Source: a virus
DNA: 64,000 nt
IMG/VR virus record: IMGVR_UViG_3300032242_002232
Location: 35,214-99,213 of that record
Direction: 5' to 3' (one strand)
The notes below the pieces were generated by a model. It was not told the origin of the DNA and did no database searches. It saw nothing but the letters and a program-made list of their open reading frames with translations. Both the position numbers and the translations under genes were made by a program. Positions within the stretch are counted from its first letter, which is position 1, and each line of letters opens with the position of its first letter. Shown one piece after another: positions 2,689 through 35,925 of this stretch.

Positions 2689-3090
2689 TTACATCATGTC
2701 TAAGATTTGTTTAGTGATACTGATCTCTTCCTCAGTAGATAGACGAAGAGTAGTCAATAGCTTTTCTCTATGTCCATTGATATGTCCATAACCATATCCA
2801 TTTGTATATAGGTTATTAGACCAATCAGCGGAACGGCTTAGTTGTGGCATTGAAGGTAGGCTTACAGTCTTATCAAAAGTAATGCTTATTCCTTTACCAT
2901 AATTAAGTGTATCAATCTCACACTTGCCTTCTTTTAAAAGCTCAGCAATAGCATTAACATACTTTGTCTTTTCAGCTTCGTATGTATCTCTTGCTGTTTT
3001 AGCTTTTGCTTTAGCTTCAGCTATGCGTACAGCCTCTGCTTCTTGTTTAGTTTCAAGTTCTTTAATGAACTCTAGTCTATTCAGCTTCAT
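2689..3090 (-). CDS. Hypothetical protein with N-terminal coiled coil
   Basis: 133 aa ORF with AGAAGGGA RBS, abutting whiB. Confidence 0.75.
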   Translation of the reverse strand: MKLNRLEFIKELETKQEAEAVRIAEAKAKAKTARDTYEAEKTKYVNAIAELLKEGKCEIDTLNYGKGISITFDKTVSLPSMPQLSRSADWSNNLYTNGYGYGHINGHREKLLTTLRLSTEEEISITKQILDMM

Positions 3091-3114
3091 GCTTTTCCCT
3101 TCTGATATGAGTAA

Positions 3115-3180
3115 TGAGCCTTTTTACCTTAGGTCATGCTCAGGACCAAGTAGCAGTTTTAGTTATCATGCTCAGGATAA
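3115..3180 (-). ncRNA. Tandem small H-type pseudoknot motif (stem-CTGAGCAT-stem...A-rich linker...GCT)
   Basis: TTATC-CTGAGCAT-GATAA-CTAAAAC-TGCT and GGTC-CTGAGCAT-GACC-TAAGGTAAAAAG-GCTCA: identical loop, different but paired stems. Confidence 0.65.
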
Positions 3181-3243
3181 TTGGTGTAGCGGAAGCGGAG
3201 ATTTCGACACGCAGTGTCTCCCAATCCAAGTCGCGTACCAATA

Positions 3244-3411
3244 CTATGAAAGAGAGATAGGTTCGCTATCCTCTTTACGGTTAGCTCGAAGAGTATCGAG
3301 CTTTGCATTAAGTGCTTCAAGATCTTTTGTCATTGCATCAAGCTCACGCTCAATAGACTCAAGATATTTGTTGATGTTCTTCATGAACTCATTCAGTTCT
3401 TCAGGGGACAT
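3244..3411 (-). CDS. Small coiled-coil protein (55 aa, MSPEELNEF...)
   Basis: GAGGT RBS; heptad pattern. Confidence 0.7.
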   Translation of the reverse strand: MSPEELNEFMKNINKYLESIERELDAMTKDLEALNAKLDTLRANRKEDSEPISLS

Positions 3412-3413
3412 AA

Positions 3414-3518
3414 CTACCTCTTTCTCCTGTTGATGATTGATGTGAGCACGATAGTAATGCTTAGCATTACCATAATGCAAACGATTGAGTTCTCAGATAT
3501 ATCAAACGATACTGACAT
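3414..3518 (-). CDS. Small membrane protein (34 aa)
   Basis: MSVSFDISENSIVCIMVMLSITIVLTSIINRRKR; AGAAGGGA RBS; hydrophobic helix followed by basic tail. Confidence 0.55.
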   Translation of the reverse strand: MSVSFDISENSIVCIMVMLSITIVLTSIINRRKR

Positions 3519-4081: not shown

Positions 4082-4345
4082 TCAAGACAAGAGCCGTTTC
4101 TTGAAGTCTAATGACGCCTCTTCGATTGTCTCAAAATAGTGACCCCAATAACAGCGACCACTTTCATGATGATAAATCCATGTAACAAATGGGTGATAGG
4201 TGCTGGCAGGAGCATGACATAGGATTACATCACACTCGATATCAGCACTAACCTTGTTTGCAAGAATAGTGGCGCCTGTAGAGACACCACCATCTCCCTG
4301 TAATACTGTGCCTACCTGAATGGTAGATACTATAGGCCGGCTCAT
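4082..4345 (-). CDS. Hypothetical phage protein
   Basis: 'PFVTW...YWGHYF...A..DF..R' pattern; ATGA-coupled to the upstream gene. Confidence 0.75.
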   Translation of the reverse strand: MSRPIVSTIQVGTVLQGDGGVSTGATILANKVSADIECDVILCHAPASTYHPFVTWIYHHESGRCYWGHYFETIEEASLDFKKRLLS

Positions 4346-4971
4346 ATTGCCTCAATCTCTGCTTTAGCAGCATCAAGTGCTTCTTGCTGTAATGCTAGTT
4401 CAGCAAGCTTGGCTTCTTTGAGCTTTACCTTAGCTGTGCTTAGATAAGACACCAACTCTTCAGCCTCTTGTAGACTGATAGTAATTGTCTTACCTTTCGT
4501 AACTTCAATCTTGTTAGAGTGTGGGTTGATCTCATAACTGAGAGCACTGTCACAATAACAATATGATGAACGACATTTGCACATAGGTTTATCCTCCTCT
4601 TCCTTTTCTTGATTATAGAATTGGGGCTTCTTATCACCCTCTTCTATTAGCCTGATATTACTAAGCCACATAGTTCTACGAACTACGTTGGCACCTTCTT
4701 CATTAGAGCCATAAGACCAGTAGCGGTCGTACATACCAGATTTGTTTGTATATCGGCTGGGCATTTCCATCAGCACAGCGACATCACGATTTCTAGCACC
4801 TACGGCTACTACCTTCCATTTATGTGTTGCGTACCTATCACGATTAGAGGTGACAGTATCGCCGGGGAATATTTTTGATATACCCCAGTAGTAATACCGA
4901 TTCTCTTCTAACTCAGGATAGTCTTTACGAAACCGCTCTAATGTCATAGCATTTGGTAATACTCGACCCAT
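4342..4971 (-). CDS. Hypothetical protein
   Basis: 209 aa ORF, AAGGAG RBS, Cys cluster CKCRSSYCYC, C-terminal coiled coil. Confidence 0.75.
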   Translation of the reverse strand: MGRVLPNAMTLERFRKDYPELEENRYYYWGISKIFPGDTVTSNRDRYATHKWKVVAVGARNRDVAVLMEMPSRYTNKSGMYDRYWSYGSNEEGANVVRRTMWLSNIRLIEEGDKKPQFYNQEKEEEDKPMCKCRSSYCYCDSALSYEINPHSNKIEVTKGKTITISLQEAEELVSYLSTAKVKLKEAKLAELALQQEALDAAKAEIEAI

Positions 4972-7554: not shown

Positions 7555-7625
7555 TCCCAGATCGTCTAATGGCAGGACGGGTGCCTCTGGAGCATCTAAT
7601 CGTGGTTCGAGTCCATGTCTGGGAG
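7555..7625 (+). tRNA. tRNA-Gln (anticodon CTG)
   Basis: Acceptor TCCCAGA/TCTGGGA, D arm GTCT/GGAC, anticodon arm GGTGC-CTCTGGA-GCATC, T arm CGTGG-TTCGAGT-CCATG; CCA not encoded. Confidence 0.92.
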
Positions 7626-10031: not shown

Positions 10032-11737
10032 TGGCAAATCGTGTAATGAAGCAAAAGGATGAAAAAGGAAAGAAGCAAGCTCGCGATGCTAGTGAGGCAC
10101 GTAAGTATGGTGTTAAAGATACAGCTTCTTATCGTAAAGAGATGCTTCATACCACTGAGCGTCCTAAGAAAAAAGACCGCGAAGCTCAAGACATTGAAGA
10201 CTCGCAAAGCCGTGCTAAAGCCGTAGACTCTGTTGCCTCAAATAAAGCTAAGCTAAAGCCATTAGAAATTAAAGAAAGTGATCGTGAGCTTTCAAATAGT
10301 GCTGGGCATCAAGATGTAAAACCTGTTGTTAAAAAAACCGCTACTCGTATGCTTTCTGAGCGTGCTCTTGGAATGGGTATGGCACGTGTAGGTAAGAGTG
10401 GCGAAATTCAACCATTAGTTGGTAGAGAAGCACAAGTAGTTAAAAATGATCTTGCTGTAAATGATAAGCAGCTAACAAAAGAAGCTAATAAGCGTGCCGC
10501 AGCTCGTGATGAAAAAGTCTCTAAAGTAGACAGAACCCCAGAGCAAAAACAAGCTCGTTTAAATATGTTAGCGGGATCCGCAGAAAAGAAAAAAGCAGCA
10601 GCAGCAGCTAAACCTGTAGGTAGCCTTCCAGAGGCGCAAACAGATCGCCCATCAACCAGGCCACTTACAGTTAAACAAGTTAACGGCAAAAGAATTGTTA
10701 CCGGTGGAGCGCAAATAATTCCTGGTGAAGGTAATGCGGGTATTCTTAATCCTGGAAATGTGGCCCGTACCGCTGGTACTGTATCCCAGGGTAAACGTCG
10801 ACGCATTGAGCGTAAAGCTGCATATAACGCAAAAAAATCTGGAGCTACTAAGGGTTACACCGAGGCATCTAAGTTTGGTTCTAGAACTTCTGAAGCAATC
10901 AATGCAAAAAATGAAGCAACTAGCATTAAGCTTGATACAAGTGCACGTACTCGTGCCGCAAGAAAAGATGCTAACAAAGAAGCACTTAAAAACAGCATTC
11001 TTAAAAAAGCAGAGAAAATGCCAGAAGGCGCAGCAAAATCTGCAGCAATTCGTTCTGGTGAATCTATTATTCAACCACCAAAGGTTAACGGTAAGCGTGG
11101 GGGCATGACTGAGGTCAGCTCACGTCCTGATGAAAGAGATATTACAAAGGTTAATACTCGTCCTCGTCCAGTAGGTCAGGGCAGATTAACTGATGTAGTT
11201 GATTCAATGGGTGAAAAGCGTGATGCTCACGGTAAGTCTACGGGAGAAAAAGAACGCCTAAAGATGAGCCAACAAGGCGAAGTTAGCGTTCAACCAGCTA
11301 AAGCTAAAGCAACTCCTCTTGGCGTACTTGCAAGCCATGAAGATCGACTACACAGAATTACAAAAGACTTTCAAGTGCCTGCTGGAAATAAAAGCCACGA
11401 TATCGAGCCTGTACATCTTCGCAGCTATTTAAAGTCTAAAGCGGAATCTTCTGGAGTTCGTTATAACGAACAAGATATGGTTGGTGCTGTATTTCACGCT
11501 AAACATAATAGTCCTGAAAAATATGCGTCTATCCATAAAGAAGCTCTTGCTCATAGAACTAAACGTATTGGTCAGATGACAGAGCAGCGCGAAACTGCTG
11601 CTGCAAAGGCTAAGCAGACACGTGCTATGACAGCGGCTGATCGTGGAGGTAAGCGTCAAGCCTCTAAGGCAAAGCGCGTTGTATCTAACGTTCAAAACCG
11701 CTTTACAGAGGTGCCTAATGGCGGCAAGGAAGCGTAA
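10031..11737 (+). CDS. Large Lys/Arg/Ala-rich, probably disordered protein
   Basis: 568 aa, strongly basic, few aromatics. Confidence 0.75.
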   Translation: MANRVMKQKDEKGKKQARDASEARKYGVKDTASYRKEMLHTTERPKKKDREAQDIEDSQSRAKAVDSVASNKAKLKPLEIKESDRELSNSAGHQDVKPVVKKTATRMLSERALGMGMARVGKSGEIQPLVGREAQVVKNDLAVNDKQLTKEANKRAAARDEKVSKVDRTPEQKQARLNMLAGSAEKKKAAAAAKPVGSLPEAQTDRPSTRPLTVKQVNGKRIVTGGAQIIPGEGNAGILNPGNVARTAGTVSQGKRRRIERKAAYNAKKSGATKGYTEASKFGSRTSEAINAKNEATSIKLDTSARTRAARKDANKEALKNSILKKAEKMPEGAAKSAAIRSGESIIQPPKVNGKRGGMTEVSSRPDERDITKVNTRPRPVGQGRLTDVVDSMGEKRDAHGKSTGEKERLKMSQQGEVSVQPAKAKATPLGVLASHEDRLHRITKDFQVPAGNKSHDIEPVHLRSYLKSKAESSGVRYNEQDMVGAVFHAKHNSPEKYASIHKEALAHRTKRIGQMTEQRETAAAKAKQTRAMTAADRGGKRQASKAKRVVSNVQNRFTEVPNGGKEA

Positions 11738-35100: not shown

Positions 35101-35925
35101 TGGGGATCATCTTCAGCATCACTTACATACCCAGGCCGTGGAAACGGTGGCGGTGGTAAGGGCGGCGGAACATATATCGCTGACGAATACAACAACCAGT
35201 ACTACTTTGCTCGTGGCCTTGATGCTACACCTAACACCGGTGGTGGCGGAGGTGGTGGCGGTTCTCTACAGAACAACTCACCATTTGCACTTATCACACA
35301 TACAGCCGCAGCAAATACTATTAACTTCGAAAACTGGAATCAGGATAACTACAAGATGGTGGGATTGTATAACGCAACCCCTATCCAGTCTTCTGGTGCA
35401 GCCATTGCTGCTGGTACCTATGGTATGCAGGTAACGATTGGTGACAATGGTTCAGCTAAGGTTGTAACTGCTTGGCAGGAATTCCCAATCCTTCCTCGTA
35501 CAGTTCTCTACTTCCCAGTTGTAGCGTTCCAACTAGCAACAGCACCTCAGGGTGTTACAAACGCTACTCTCTTCCCAGGATTGTCAAAGCGTGTTCGCCC
35601 AACAGTTCGTTGGAAGGATGCAACTAACACAATCATCCGTGAAGATCGCCCAGCATATGATGCAATCTTTACAGCACTATCAACAACTACCTACCTTGGA
35701 CCTACAGCAGGTTACGCACAGTCTGGTGGTTGGGCAACATTAGCGGCTCCTGCAAACGCTTACTTCTTCGACCTAACATATGAATTCGATTACTTTGATG
35801 GTGGTGACGTTGTTTACGTAGACAACGCGGCAGCTGCTGTCCAGTACCTTGGATACATTGGTCAAGGCGGTAACGGTGCTGACGGTTATGCTATCGTTCG
35901 TTACTTCGACAAGACTTCACTCTAA
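32179..35925 (+). CDS. Glycine-rich tail fibre/receptor-binding protein
   Basis: FTASGTWTAPSGVT....LVGAGGGGG; GGGGG blocks; ends GGNGADGYAIVRY; CBM-like inserts. Confidence 0.8.
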   Translation: MAISAYKDVIVFPNDNSGRVNIKEQAFTASGTWTAPSGVTAAQIILVGAGGGGGGGSTNVAGGGGGGGQVTVINYPVTPGTAYQVNIGAGGLGGQSSITSATDVLSTLPGANGGTTSFGSTTVWNYLTNPDFDYNTLGWDPEVTFRFVTGVSGASTVQVFPNAAGLINGMYVLGTNLGSNTQITAISGNILTLSVINAGAVNTVVRFDGGNSQLAPANTTVNAISAPGVDAITGVNTFAVNSAGSPYTNTMTGTTQPQILSNNLMPARLAQLEDPQLVSGTYISSQGTNAATISITAAGLPAKINNEMIGAVTTTASATNGATTITVTNAFGIYANMFITAPSGIATGTYVLAVNGTSITLSTGTTGVLSGSTVYFSYNPSLGLNALLATTGAAVSTANPSWLLFSTLTNTSTTGSSSYVGGYQGIPWIPGQTYTVSAYVSSNLNISTSTPILFQLRSAGWSYMAAVNVNYLGGTGTYTPNTNTIDAGTTNGFFVRQSTAAAMTGYGASITSTATGSSGSTQFVVTNAAGVYVGMQITAVGVTVGTTVTSITGSTGSQTVTMSAVSTAALTNTSVTFSMPSGVQVLGSTVTTGQTGWRRIYATITTPSISATSATATNNIYGLGSTPQFIYPAIVLQQANTSFWFDNLQVELGSVPTTWQPPVYQQIPSLSVQSNANNSTDLESAHRPVRITANSTYSGSMYVTALGTTPYYQPVTAFIEWMDVDYNVLSRSTGSNNFLPLLPQQTATVQAPNTTYPVRIGVSATAPATAVFARLGFSVYQGTKGATTAIQYNMFYPVLELGSNVFTQPKRPDGINYFWAGQPGASALISSWALAAEGGGGGGTYNSANTHWQYGLEGGNNGGHAANNSYSTLTLAGGGGGSFSVGMPGQAWGQTTNASTSSQVGTNTGSTAGIYSHTFPVRGNLGGFSHIDNGGNASYLSAQGGDGGLGQLISGLTSGSPLGLTLGGGGGGAGWGSSSASLTYPGRGNGGGGKGGGTYIADEYNNQYYFARGLDATPNTGGGGGGGGSLQNNSPFALITHTAAANTINFENWNQDNYKMVGLYNATPIQSSGAAIAAGTYGMQVTIGDNGSAKVVTAWQEFPILPRTVLYFPVVAFQLATAPQGVTNATLFPGLSKRVRPTVRWKDATNTIIREDRPAYDAIFTALSTTTYLGPTAGYAQSGGWATLAAPANAYFFDLTYEFDYFDGGDVVYVDNAAAAVQYLGYIGQGGNGADGYAIVRYFDKTSL

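Follow-up and report, generated by a model that had tools for sequence, protein, structure and literature searches.

A predicted compact pseudoknot RNA held between genes by phages of many unrelated bacteria

Two adjacent repeats between two genes of a phage raise the question of whether an RNA structure is selected there and, if so, what it does for the phage message. They lie at 3180-3115 on the minus strand of the 64,000-nucleotide (nt) stretch of DNA analysed here (the window; positions 35,214 to 99,213 of IMG/VR virus record IMGVR_UViG_3300032242_002232). In a reading made from the letters of the DNA (the sequence-only reading), they had been described as two units with a common loop, stems that differ between the units and stay paired, and downstream segments complementary to the loop, in H-type pseudoknot topology 24 nt ahead of a start codon. 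Each of these parts is present, the second unit ending at 3115 and the ATG occupying 3090-3088, and the topology was upheld by covariation in both helices among homologues. In the notation used below, stem S1 encloses a loop made of L1, S2a, and L2, and the linker L3 is followed by S2b, which pairs with S2a to form stem S2.

The window pair taken alone is a modest case. Both units contain the 12-mer TCCTGAGCATGA without a mismatch, at a spacing of 32 nt, and no further copy was detected across the 99,213-base-pair (bp) genome, so that it is not a genome-wide repeat. The units are partly degenerate, with S2 limited to 4 bp in unit 1 (AGCA/UGCU) and to 5 bp in unit 2 (UGAGC with GCUCA) and without a clear U-tract. 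The window helices contribute singly only -1 to -4.4 kcal/mol each, and nested minimum free energy (MFE) folds of the spacer, as well as single hairpins, were no better than shuffles (z = +0.3 to +1.07); these z-scores are uninformative because the fold is a pseudoknot in which each single helix is marginal. The two copies alone are not statistically compelling, and it is the homologues that supply the case for more than chance. The claim of a selected RNA structure thus stood by way of the homologues, while the comparison between the two copies, on which it had been based, proved weak.

A total of 72 strict-consensus units were gathered by sequence alone, S1 not being required. The consensus is S1 (3-9 bp, any sequence)-C-UGAGCA-N-S1'-(N2-8)AAAC-UGCUCA, usually with a pyrimidine next, and a unit measures about 34 nt, of which about 18 positions are near-invariant across phages of many phyla. 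In the standard register, S1 of at least 3 bp is formed in 56 of the 72 units, and the other 16 form it when a longer L2 is allowed (one of them doubtful). More than 25 S1 sequences were found overall, with 21 distinct arm pairs in the standard register and several more among the units with a longer L2. A single variable base makes up L2 (U33/A17/G12/C10), and L1 is C in all aligned units and U in two divergent units of locus L097 (related loci and contigs are given here by L numbers).

Pairing was then evaluated in 38 diverse units against 500 shuffles and slid-partner controls. The proportion of paired cells was 94.5%, against 79.9% for the shuffles (0/500) and 22-37% with a slid partner. 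The three inner pairs of S1 are paired in 100% of units, the closing C-G being invariant and the two others varying as CG18/GC14/AU5/UA1 and UA21/AU17. S2 seemed invariant in the first 18 copies and covaries in the larger set: pair 12-35 is AU32/GC6 with no mispair, pair 11-36 is GC33/GU3/AU1, and pair 14-33 is CG30/UG7. A-U is replaced by G-C in six units and G-C by A-U in the L092/L094 unit and in unit B of L097, a paired C/G insertion in L136 and L128 gives a 7-bp S2, and compensated variants such as UGAGCCA/UGGCUCA, UAGGCA/UGCCU, and AAGCA/UGCUU are found. G.U wobbles occur at three S2 positions, solely on the sense strand; the distal U-A 'pair' of S2 shows no covariation. The window units have orthologues of the same kind, unit 1 in L097 with a 5-bp S2 preserved by compensated change (AAGCA/UGCUU), and unit 2 in L096/L097 with S1 UGUC/GACA, compensated relative to GGUC/GACC. 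Covariation between the loop and the 3' segment, which the sequence-only reading had named as its test, was therefore found, and the predicted H-type pseudoknot is as well established as a comparison of sequences allows.

In its geometry the fold corresponds to a classical compact H-type knot, with a 1-base L1 across a 6-bp S2, one junction base, and an A-rich L3 over a short S1. Invariant positions gather at the helical junction, namely the L1 C, the central G-C pairs of S2, the closing C-G of S1, and the AAAC. Several variant forms were observed. Represented among the 72 units, a sub-class of about 14 low-GC IMG/VR contigs (including L169, L175, L179, L207, L219, L223, L224, L235, and L245) has a 6-bp S1 (AUAGAC/GUCUAU), a 3-nt L2, and a minimal 4-nt L3, and is always placed about 100 nt past the upstream open reading frame (ORF). 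At L097:4560-4625 (+), two divergent units stand upstream of the one detected by the model; S2 is GACG/CGUC in unit A and AAGCA/UGCUU in unit B, the S1 of unit B is CCCG/CGGG, and the S2b of A overlaps the S1 of B by one base. In L120 (4225-4250), L125, and L127, an alternative partner for S2b (GCUCA) is a UGAGC located 7 nt downstream, beyond a U-run; their pairing would form a small competing hairpin and would create, on the other strand, a site resembling a terminator.

The covariation and the strand of the units bear directly on whether the repeats work as double-stranded DNA, that is, as an operator, iteron, or centromere-like repeat whose 12-bp direct repeats are bound by protein. Such a site would suit the two exact 12-bp repeats spaced by 32 bp, roughly three helical turns, the presence of one or two loci per genome, and the inverted repeat TGAGCA/TGCTCA. 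S1 covariation over more than 25 sequences is, however, needless for any DNA-binding model, the spacing of units varies (29, 32, 37, 48, and 66 nt), and single units are common. Flanking ORFs are on the motif strand at 66 of the 72 units, the copies checked in cultured phages and near MoxR genes are co-oriented with genes, and all 24 of the MoxR-linked matches described below lie on the gene strand. Neither the strand independence nor the pairing-free conservation of an operator or iteron was observed, and the dependence on orientation that had been set against a DNA operator in the sequence-only reading was confirmed. A duplex-DNA site is ruled out, or very nearly so, because the orientation is strand-locked and the wobbles are confined to the sense strand.

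Carriers were collected by several routes. An exact-pattern scan for the two loop cores gave L003 and L011 with tandem units, amid unrelated coding repeats; inspection by eye and the S1 test removed L001, L002, L005-L010, and most of L013-L050 from the first tandem scan as coding repeats or chance matches, and a second pattern scan added L012, L018, L023, L034, L038, L041, L042, and L051. Anchoring on the MoxR ATPase gave 59 related loci, in which covariance model R1 matched 24 places, mostly 1.4-1.8 kb upstream of MoxR. The strict single-unit pattern is present in at least 120 IMG/VR viral contigs. By single-unit BLAST against cultured phages, matches were obtained in Acutalibacteraceae phage NatCom_11578, 27 Vibrio phages (D456 group), mycobacteriophage Labelle, Paracoccus phages ParMal1 and ParKuw1, Synechococcus phage S-EIVl, cyanophage S-RIM4, Lentibacter phages ICBM1-3, Nostoc phage NMeng1, and a Microviridae. 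Model R2 confirmed NatCom_11578, D456, Labelle, ParMal1, S-EIVl, S-RIM4, ICBM1, NMeng1, and the Microviridae at 27-44 bits. Roseobacter phage SIO1 and Celeribacter phage P12053L are likewise carriers, Lentibacter and Celeribacter both being Roseobacter-group hosts, and gut Clostridia phages are included. The search among actinophage genomes that had been proposed would have been too narrow, the carriers extending well beyond actinophages. Each locus holds one to five units.

Bacterial genomes gave a different picture. Scanning 185,579 prokaryote genomes with the tandem pattern yielded 17 matches, 16 by chance and one true locus, the latter on a 19-kb contig from a metagenome-assembled genome (MAG) and, over the motif region, identical to the IMG/VR viral contig L041. 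In an earlier set, S1 was present in 18 of 20 viral matches as compared with 4 of 16 chance bacterial ones. One of the 'chance' matches, L052:4216-4272 (-) in a Porifericola MAG, has a well-formed S1 (GGUA/UACC) and S2, and is either a real prophage copy or a coincidence. Rfam 15 returned no family at any copy checked, at gathering thresholds and at expectation (E) values up to 10; in particular, cmscan at E up to 10 gave nothing on window 3050-3260 and no match at the element in L011, L153-L156, L159, and L165, in agreement with the earlier statement that no named Rfam family could be assigned. Literature searches by motif strings and by topic returned nothing on the element. By comparative evidence, a knotted fold without an Rfam entry is held between genes by phages of many unrelated bacteria. 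As to the arrays themselves, the two ends of the 50.8-kb contig IMGVR_UViG_3300026097_000031 (L023:1-300 and L003:14300-14595) share an identical 109-nt flank followed by different unit sets, which looks like a circular assembly broken by population-level array variation.

The position of the element relative to genes is more uniform than the genes themselves. No protein family common to the flanking genes was detected using PHROGs, Pfam, and all-against-all BLAST. The element begins 1-21 nt past a stop codon in L012, L018, L034, L038, L041, L042, and Labelle, and likewise in S-RIM4, ICBM1 (at the RNR-glutaredoxin junction), ParMal1, S-EIVl, a Microviridae, and SIO1. Directly behind S2b, U-rich stretches free of G are much commoner than at control positions: a U-tract (at least 5 U in the 8 nt directly after S2b) was found in 41.7% of the 72 units against 8.2% of control positions. 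About 190 cyanomyoviruses share a conserved gene, and the slot behind it is filled by the pseudoknot in S-RIM4, by terminators made of a hairpin plus a U-tract in S-CAM3 and Syn19, and by a hairpin in Syn9; similarly, the pseudoknot of Labelle stands where a 14-bp hairpin is present in Patience. At that locus (L153:1493-1790 vs L167:1094-1224), the sequence of Labelle is unlike that of Patience and Madruga once the stop codon of their common gene is passed; in Labelle the pseudoknot is accompanied by about 180 nt and by a tRNA-Gln similar to the one in Gordonia phage GMA2, whereas Patience carries the long hairpin and a different tRNA-Gln.

In L042, NMeng1, L191, and L208, the knot ends 4-5 nt ahead of the 5' end of a tRNA or tRNA-like element, and RNase P cleavage would therefore leave the knot at the 3' end of the upstream RNA. 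General proximity to tRNA genes is not enriched (4 of the 72 units within 300 nt, about 7% being expected), and only the 4-5-nt juxtaposition stands out. The tRNA-like element of L042 (6926-6998, +) lies 5 nt past the array and has a 7-bp acceptor stem, a T-arm, and an encoded ACCA, with no ARAGORN call. Promoters matching 11 of 12 consensus positions are located 14-53 nt past the knot in L018, L104, and L145, and the knot is outside the transcript of the next gene in these three because the promoter lies between. A GC-rich hairpin is often present 2-6 nt upstream of the knot, as in the window, L104, L136, L128, L120, L130, L098, L135, and P12053L. In L104 (4475-4515), L136/L128 (about 4330-4370), and L120 (about 4165-4200), a 9-10-bp GC-rich hairpin with the conserved loop UUCGUCGUU or UGUCGUU stands 2-6 nt 5' of the knot, with GUAAAAA between stop codon and hairpin; in this phage group the motif may be larger than the knot.

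From this genomic context, we tentatively favour a terminator-like, exonuclease-resistant 3'-end or processing-boundary module, a reading to which we give somewhat less than an even chance. The element would act in cis on phage transcripts from a place just past a coding region, S2 being formed directly before a U-rich tract or before a processing site, the 5' end of a tRNA for instance. The message upstream of it would then terminate in, or be trimmed back to, a small triplex-braced knot, in which the A-rich L3 ending in AAAC is predicted to lie in the minor groove of S1 while the L1 C crosses the deep groove. Standing in for a terminator or stabiliser hairpin, the knot may aid the release or attenuation of transcription where a U-tract follows, and may resist 3'-exonucleases, tandem copies adding redundancy. 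The window units, which lie inside a leftward early operon, would serve as an intercistronic stabiliser or attenuator rather than a full terminator, set between a 78-amino-acid ORF and the block of a 133-amino-acid ORF, WhiB, and MoxR. Among the three functions offered by the sequence-only reading (a riboswitch-like aptamer, a nuclease-blocking element, and a protein-binding RNA), the nuclease-blocking element is the most compatible with these results.

Known elements that resemble such a module include intrinsic terminators and 3' stabiliser hairpins, such as those in intergenic regions of T4-like cyanophages and in the J-F region of phiX174. These also follow directly after a gene, the 3' strand of the helix abuts a U-tract in about 40% of the phage units, and the slots of S-CAM3, Syn19, and Patience match. 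In contrast to them, the U-tract helix of the knot is only 6 bp and pseudoknot-closed (the S2 helix alone amounts to -5.4 kcal/mol), many units have no U-tract, and the sequence is conserved across unrelated phages, that of ordinary terminators not being so. A resemblance is also seen to the upstream pseudoknot domain of tobacco mosaic virus (tobamovirus 3' untranslated region), in which tandem small knots also begin just past a stop codon, next to a tRNA-like structure; some phage loci are likewise directly followed by a tRNA or tRNA-like element. The two are unrelated in sequence, the tobamovirus domain relies on factors of eukaryotes, and a tRNA is not close to most of the phage copies.

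Several observations weigh against a message-end module. The window units lack a U-tract and are followed by a start codon 24 nt on, with no promoter found between. Because many of the 72 units come from a few sub-families, they are less independent than the U-tract statistic makes them seem. Promoters are not generally enriched downstream, those matching at least 10 of 12 positions being found at 9.9% downstream, 9.9% upstream, and 6.5% in controls. The gap to the next start codon is tight, 20-27 nt in about ten lineages, and could point instead to translation of the downstream gene; an end module could explain it indirectly, as the minimum distance that frees the ribosome-binding site (RBS) in compact genomes. 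Moreover, a pure roadblock is not obviously in need of a near-invariant L1 C, AAAC, and S2 across host phyla.

A related possibility, which we regard as unlikely though worth serious attention, is that the knot blocks movement in the opposite sense, as a 5'-to-3' roadblock against RNase J or against a ribosome running or scanning past the stop codon, thereby protecting or insulating the downstream cistron and forming a phage counterpart of exoribonuclease-resistant RNAs (xrRNAs). The xrRNAs of coremin (xrRNA-C) and Watson-Crick coremin (xrRNA-WCC) type stall Xrn1 and ribosomes (PMC10321173, PMC10520033), and the architecture is like theirs, with a 3-5-bp hairpin, a single pyrimidine (L1) bridging to S2, an A-rich UAAAC spacer, and loop-spacer pairing in a small H-type knot, found in 3' untranslated or intergenic locations and occasionally used in tandem; tandem copies are also a feature of flaviviral xrRNAs. 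The coremin consensus was taken from the same two papers, in which the loop is YGAD or YGNNAD and the spacer ends in CUAC (or S2 is a 3-bp Watson-Crick helix) (PMC10321173, PMC10520033). When set against that consensus, the phage knot shares the short first hairpin, the single pyrimidine bridge, and a loop-spacer helix with covariation, and departs from it in an 8-nt loop (C-UGAGCA-N) and in a spacer that ends in AAAC and is followed by a 6-nt S2b. Its S2 is 6 bp of Watson-Crick pairs, as against 3 bp or non-canonical pairing in coremin, bacterial hosts have no Xrn1, and the nuclease resistance considered here is a prediction. The second hairpin that coremin requires is inconsistently present: in arrays the next unit could serve as its equivalent, and single units are often followed by a U-tract or RBS without a hairpin.

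The roadblock would also fit the order seen in the family of about 99-kb phages, in which a tRNA-Met (L096, L097, L092, and L094) or the 78-amino-acid ORF (window) is followed by two to three units, a gap of 20-24 nt with an RBS, and a start codon. It is in this family only that the earlier description of the element as part of a 5' leader applies; elsewhere the element stands right after stop codons or at unit ends. The pseudoknot-plus-RBS leader is found ahead of the 133-amino-acid ORF in the window (3091-3114), ahead of WhiB in L097 (4657-4679), and ahead of another ORF in L092 (4202-4221), which suggests gene replacement exactly at the start codon among three related phages. Frameshifter knots have an A-rich L3 over S1 as the feature that resists 5'-to-3' unwinding, and this feature is present. 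On the other hand, 27 Vibrio phages carry the element, although Vibrio hosts have, to our knowledge, no RNase J; the knot is separated from the next gene by a promoter in L018, L104, and L145; and neither the enrichment of U-tracts nor the equivalence of slots with terminators is explained by a roadblock.

The likeness to frameshifter knots extends to the luteovirid -1 frameshift pseudoknots of beet western yellows virus and potato leafroll virus, which are also compact H-type knots having a 1-2-nt L1 with a conserved C in the deep groove of S2, one extruded junction base, and an A-rich loop over the minor groove of S1. Conservation at the helical junction is likewise shared with coremin-type xrRNAs and the luteovirid knots (PMC10321173). 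The phage element differs in having no slippery heptamer, in its location after a stop codon rather than in an overlap, in its S2 of 6 bp instead of 3, and in belonging to DNA phages. A frameshift or readthrough signal was dropped from consideration, the defining features being absent: no slippery X XXY YYZ heptamer in frame was found in L018, L034, L038, and the window, and the element follows stop codons of all three kinds.

The juxtaposition with tRNAs raises another reading, that the coaxial stack of S1 and S2 (10-11 bp) followed by A-C(-C) mimics a tRNA acceptor helix and is cut by RNase P or tRNA-end enzymes, dividing the polycistronic message. S2 can be read as U(-1), G1-C72, A2-U71, G3-C70, C4-G69, A5-U68, discriminator A, and then C; the base after S2b is C in about 70% of the first 45 units and almost never G, the distal U-A 'pair' never covaries, and a tRNA or tRNA-like gene adjoins the element at several loci. 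The universality of RNase P would agree with the distribution over host phyla. We nevertheless consider this mimicry improbable. The general proximity to tRNAs is not enriched as noted above, the 'leader' would be a base-paired S1 strand plus a single base and a poor RNase P substrate, CCA after S2b is not conserved, and no role is given to the conserved AAAC of L3 or to the C of L1.

Slightly less probable still is a protein-binding site or ligand aptamer tuning the translation of a gene 20-27 nt downstream. The conservation of about half of the positions across phages of many phyla and the tight start-codon spacing in about ten lineages would agree with it, tandem sites would suit cooperative binding, and the size and topology match the preQ1-I aptamer (RF00522), a 34-nt H-type knot having a 4-5-bp P1, an A-rich L3 ending in AAAC(U), and a loop paired with a 3' segment. 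Unlike in preQ1-I, the multi-base L2 with its ligand-pairing C is absent and the position of the ligand pocket is a single variable base; the phage element has no Rfam match, its loop sequence differs, and its flanking genes are diverse with no link to queuosine genes. The bases of S2 vary freely while pairing is kept, the neighbouring genes belong to no common family, the RBS is not sequestered, and many copies have no gene at the distance in question. The tandem form, as described above, was found in the 185,579 prokaryote genomes scanned at only one true locus, the MAG contig identical to L041 in the motif region. The riboswitch-like aptamer suggested by the sequence-only reading is thus unlikely, given the one-base variable L2, the lack of a common flanking family, and the tandem form not having been found in bacterial genomes.

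Other candidates were dropped, their defining features being absent, namely a ToxI-like antitoxin, a gene 32-type operator, a hammerhead- or pistol-like ribozyme, an anticodon-arm or D-stem mimic, and complementarity to the 16S 5' end. Type III antitoxins (ToxI, CptI, TenpI, and phage pseudo-ToxI) are also tandem pseudoknot units of about 30-45 nt with known phage-borne copies; in contrast, the present units differ in S1 and spacing within an array, adjoining proteins gave no ToxN-like match in Pfam or PHROGs, no bacterial arrays were found in the prokaryote scan, and no Rfam match was obtained. The autoregulatory pseudoknot of T-even gene 32 is an H-type knot of phage mRNA with a 1-nt L1 across a 6-7-bp S2, and differs in sitting at the 5' end of the gene 32 leader, where it nucleates gp32 binding; here the neighbours are unrelated and no gene for a single-stranded DNA-binding protein is next to the element.

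Small structured RNAs of phages are poorly catalogued, and the present element is one of 34 nt, with two covarying helices, in at least 120 viral contigs and in well-known cultured phages. Its spread over hosts among Actinobacteria, Cyanobacteria, Proteobacteria, and Clostridia implies either a partner in universal machinery, for which RNA polymerase, 3'-exonucleases, RNase P, and the ribosome are candidates, or a self-sufficient mechanical fold. It is conceivable, though rather doubtful, that the element is the first RNA from a bacterial virus to correspond to the exoribonuclease-resistant or 'mechanical roadblock' RNAs of eukaryotic viruses, a triplex-braced 34-nt knot defining and shielding message ends, or else a pseudoknot-type terminator, exchanged among phages of at least five bacterial phyla and single-stranded DNA microviruses independently of host lineage. 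Should it turn out to serve as a portable terminator or stabiliser, it would be a very small part controlling message ends in many bacteria. The function is directly testable, since culturable phage-host pairs carry the element.

Table 1. Coordinates of the pseudoknot units and adjoining features in the window
Feature	Position	Strand	Description
Pseudoknot unit 1	3150..3180	minus	Sequence and match to model R2 (32.4 bits, E 1.2e-6)
Unit 1, S1	3180-3176 with 3167-3163	minus	UUAUC with GAUAA
Unit 1, loop	3175; 3174-3169; 3168	minus	L1 C; S2a UGAGCA; L2 U
Unit 1, L3 and S2b	3162-3156; 3155-3150	minus	Linker CUAAAAC; S2b UGCUAC
Pseudoknot unit 2	3115..3147	minus	Sequence and match to model R1 (34.9 bits, E 8.6e-8)
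Unit 2, S1	3147-3144 with 3135-3132	minus	GGUC with GACC
Unit 2, loop	3143; 3142-3137; 3136	minus	L1 C; S2a UGAGCA; L2 U
Unit 2, L3 and S2b	3131-3120; 3119-3115	minus	Long L3, 12-nt A-rich linker; S2b GCUCA
Irregular hairpin domain	3181..3242	minus	MFE and centroid fold; between stop codon of 78-amino-acid ORF and unit 1
Spacer from S2b to ATG, 24 nt	3091..3114	minus	Purine-rich ribosome-binding stretch GAAGGGA
Upstream 78-amino-acid coiled-coil ORF	3244..3480	minus	Stop TAG 3246-3244
Downstream 133-amino-acid ORF, function unassigned	2689..3090	minus	ATG 3090-3088

The surroundings of the window units are as follows (Table 1). Both units sit in the 153-nt 3' untranslated spacer of the 78-amino-acid ORF, in which promoter and terminator scans found neither. 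The hairpin domain upstream of unit 1 is closed by AUUGGU/ACCAAU, its final paired base, 3180, also belonging to S1 of unit 1, and its apical hairpin is GACAC-UGC-GUGUC (3218-3206). The spacer ahead of the ATG is conserved with L096/L097, in which a WhiB gene follows it. No match to the 1-kb region, to the 133-amino-acid protein, or to a 568-amino-acid ORF was obtained in the cultured-phage collection, and a search for related loci with the 133-amino-acid protein found none. The 133-amino-acid ORF is followed, all on the minus strand, by WhiB (2366-2686), a 220-amino-acid ORF, and the MoxR-type AAA ATPase (38-1432). Three WhiB-family paralogues are present in the phage, two in G000 (958-1269 and 11155-11472, both plus strand) and the one in the window; the genome is assigned to an actinophage because the virus record carries these three genes. 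A tRNA gene is located at 7555-7625 (+) of the window (Rfam tRNA, 52.4 bits), near the point at which the two gene arms diverge.

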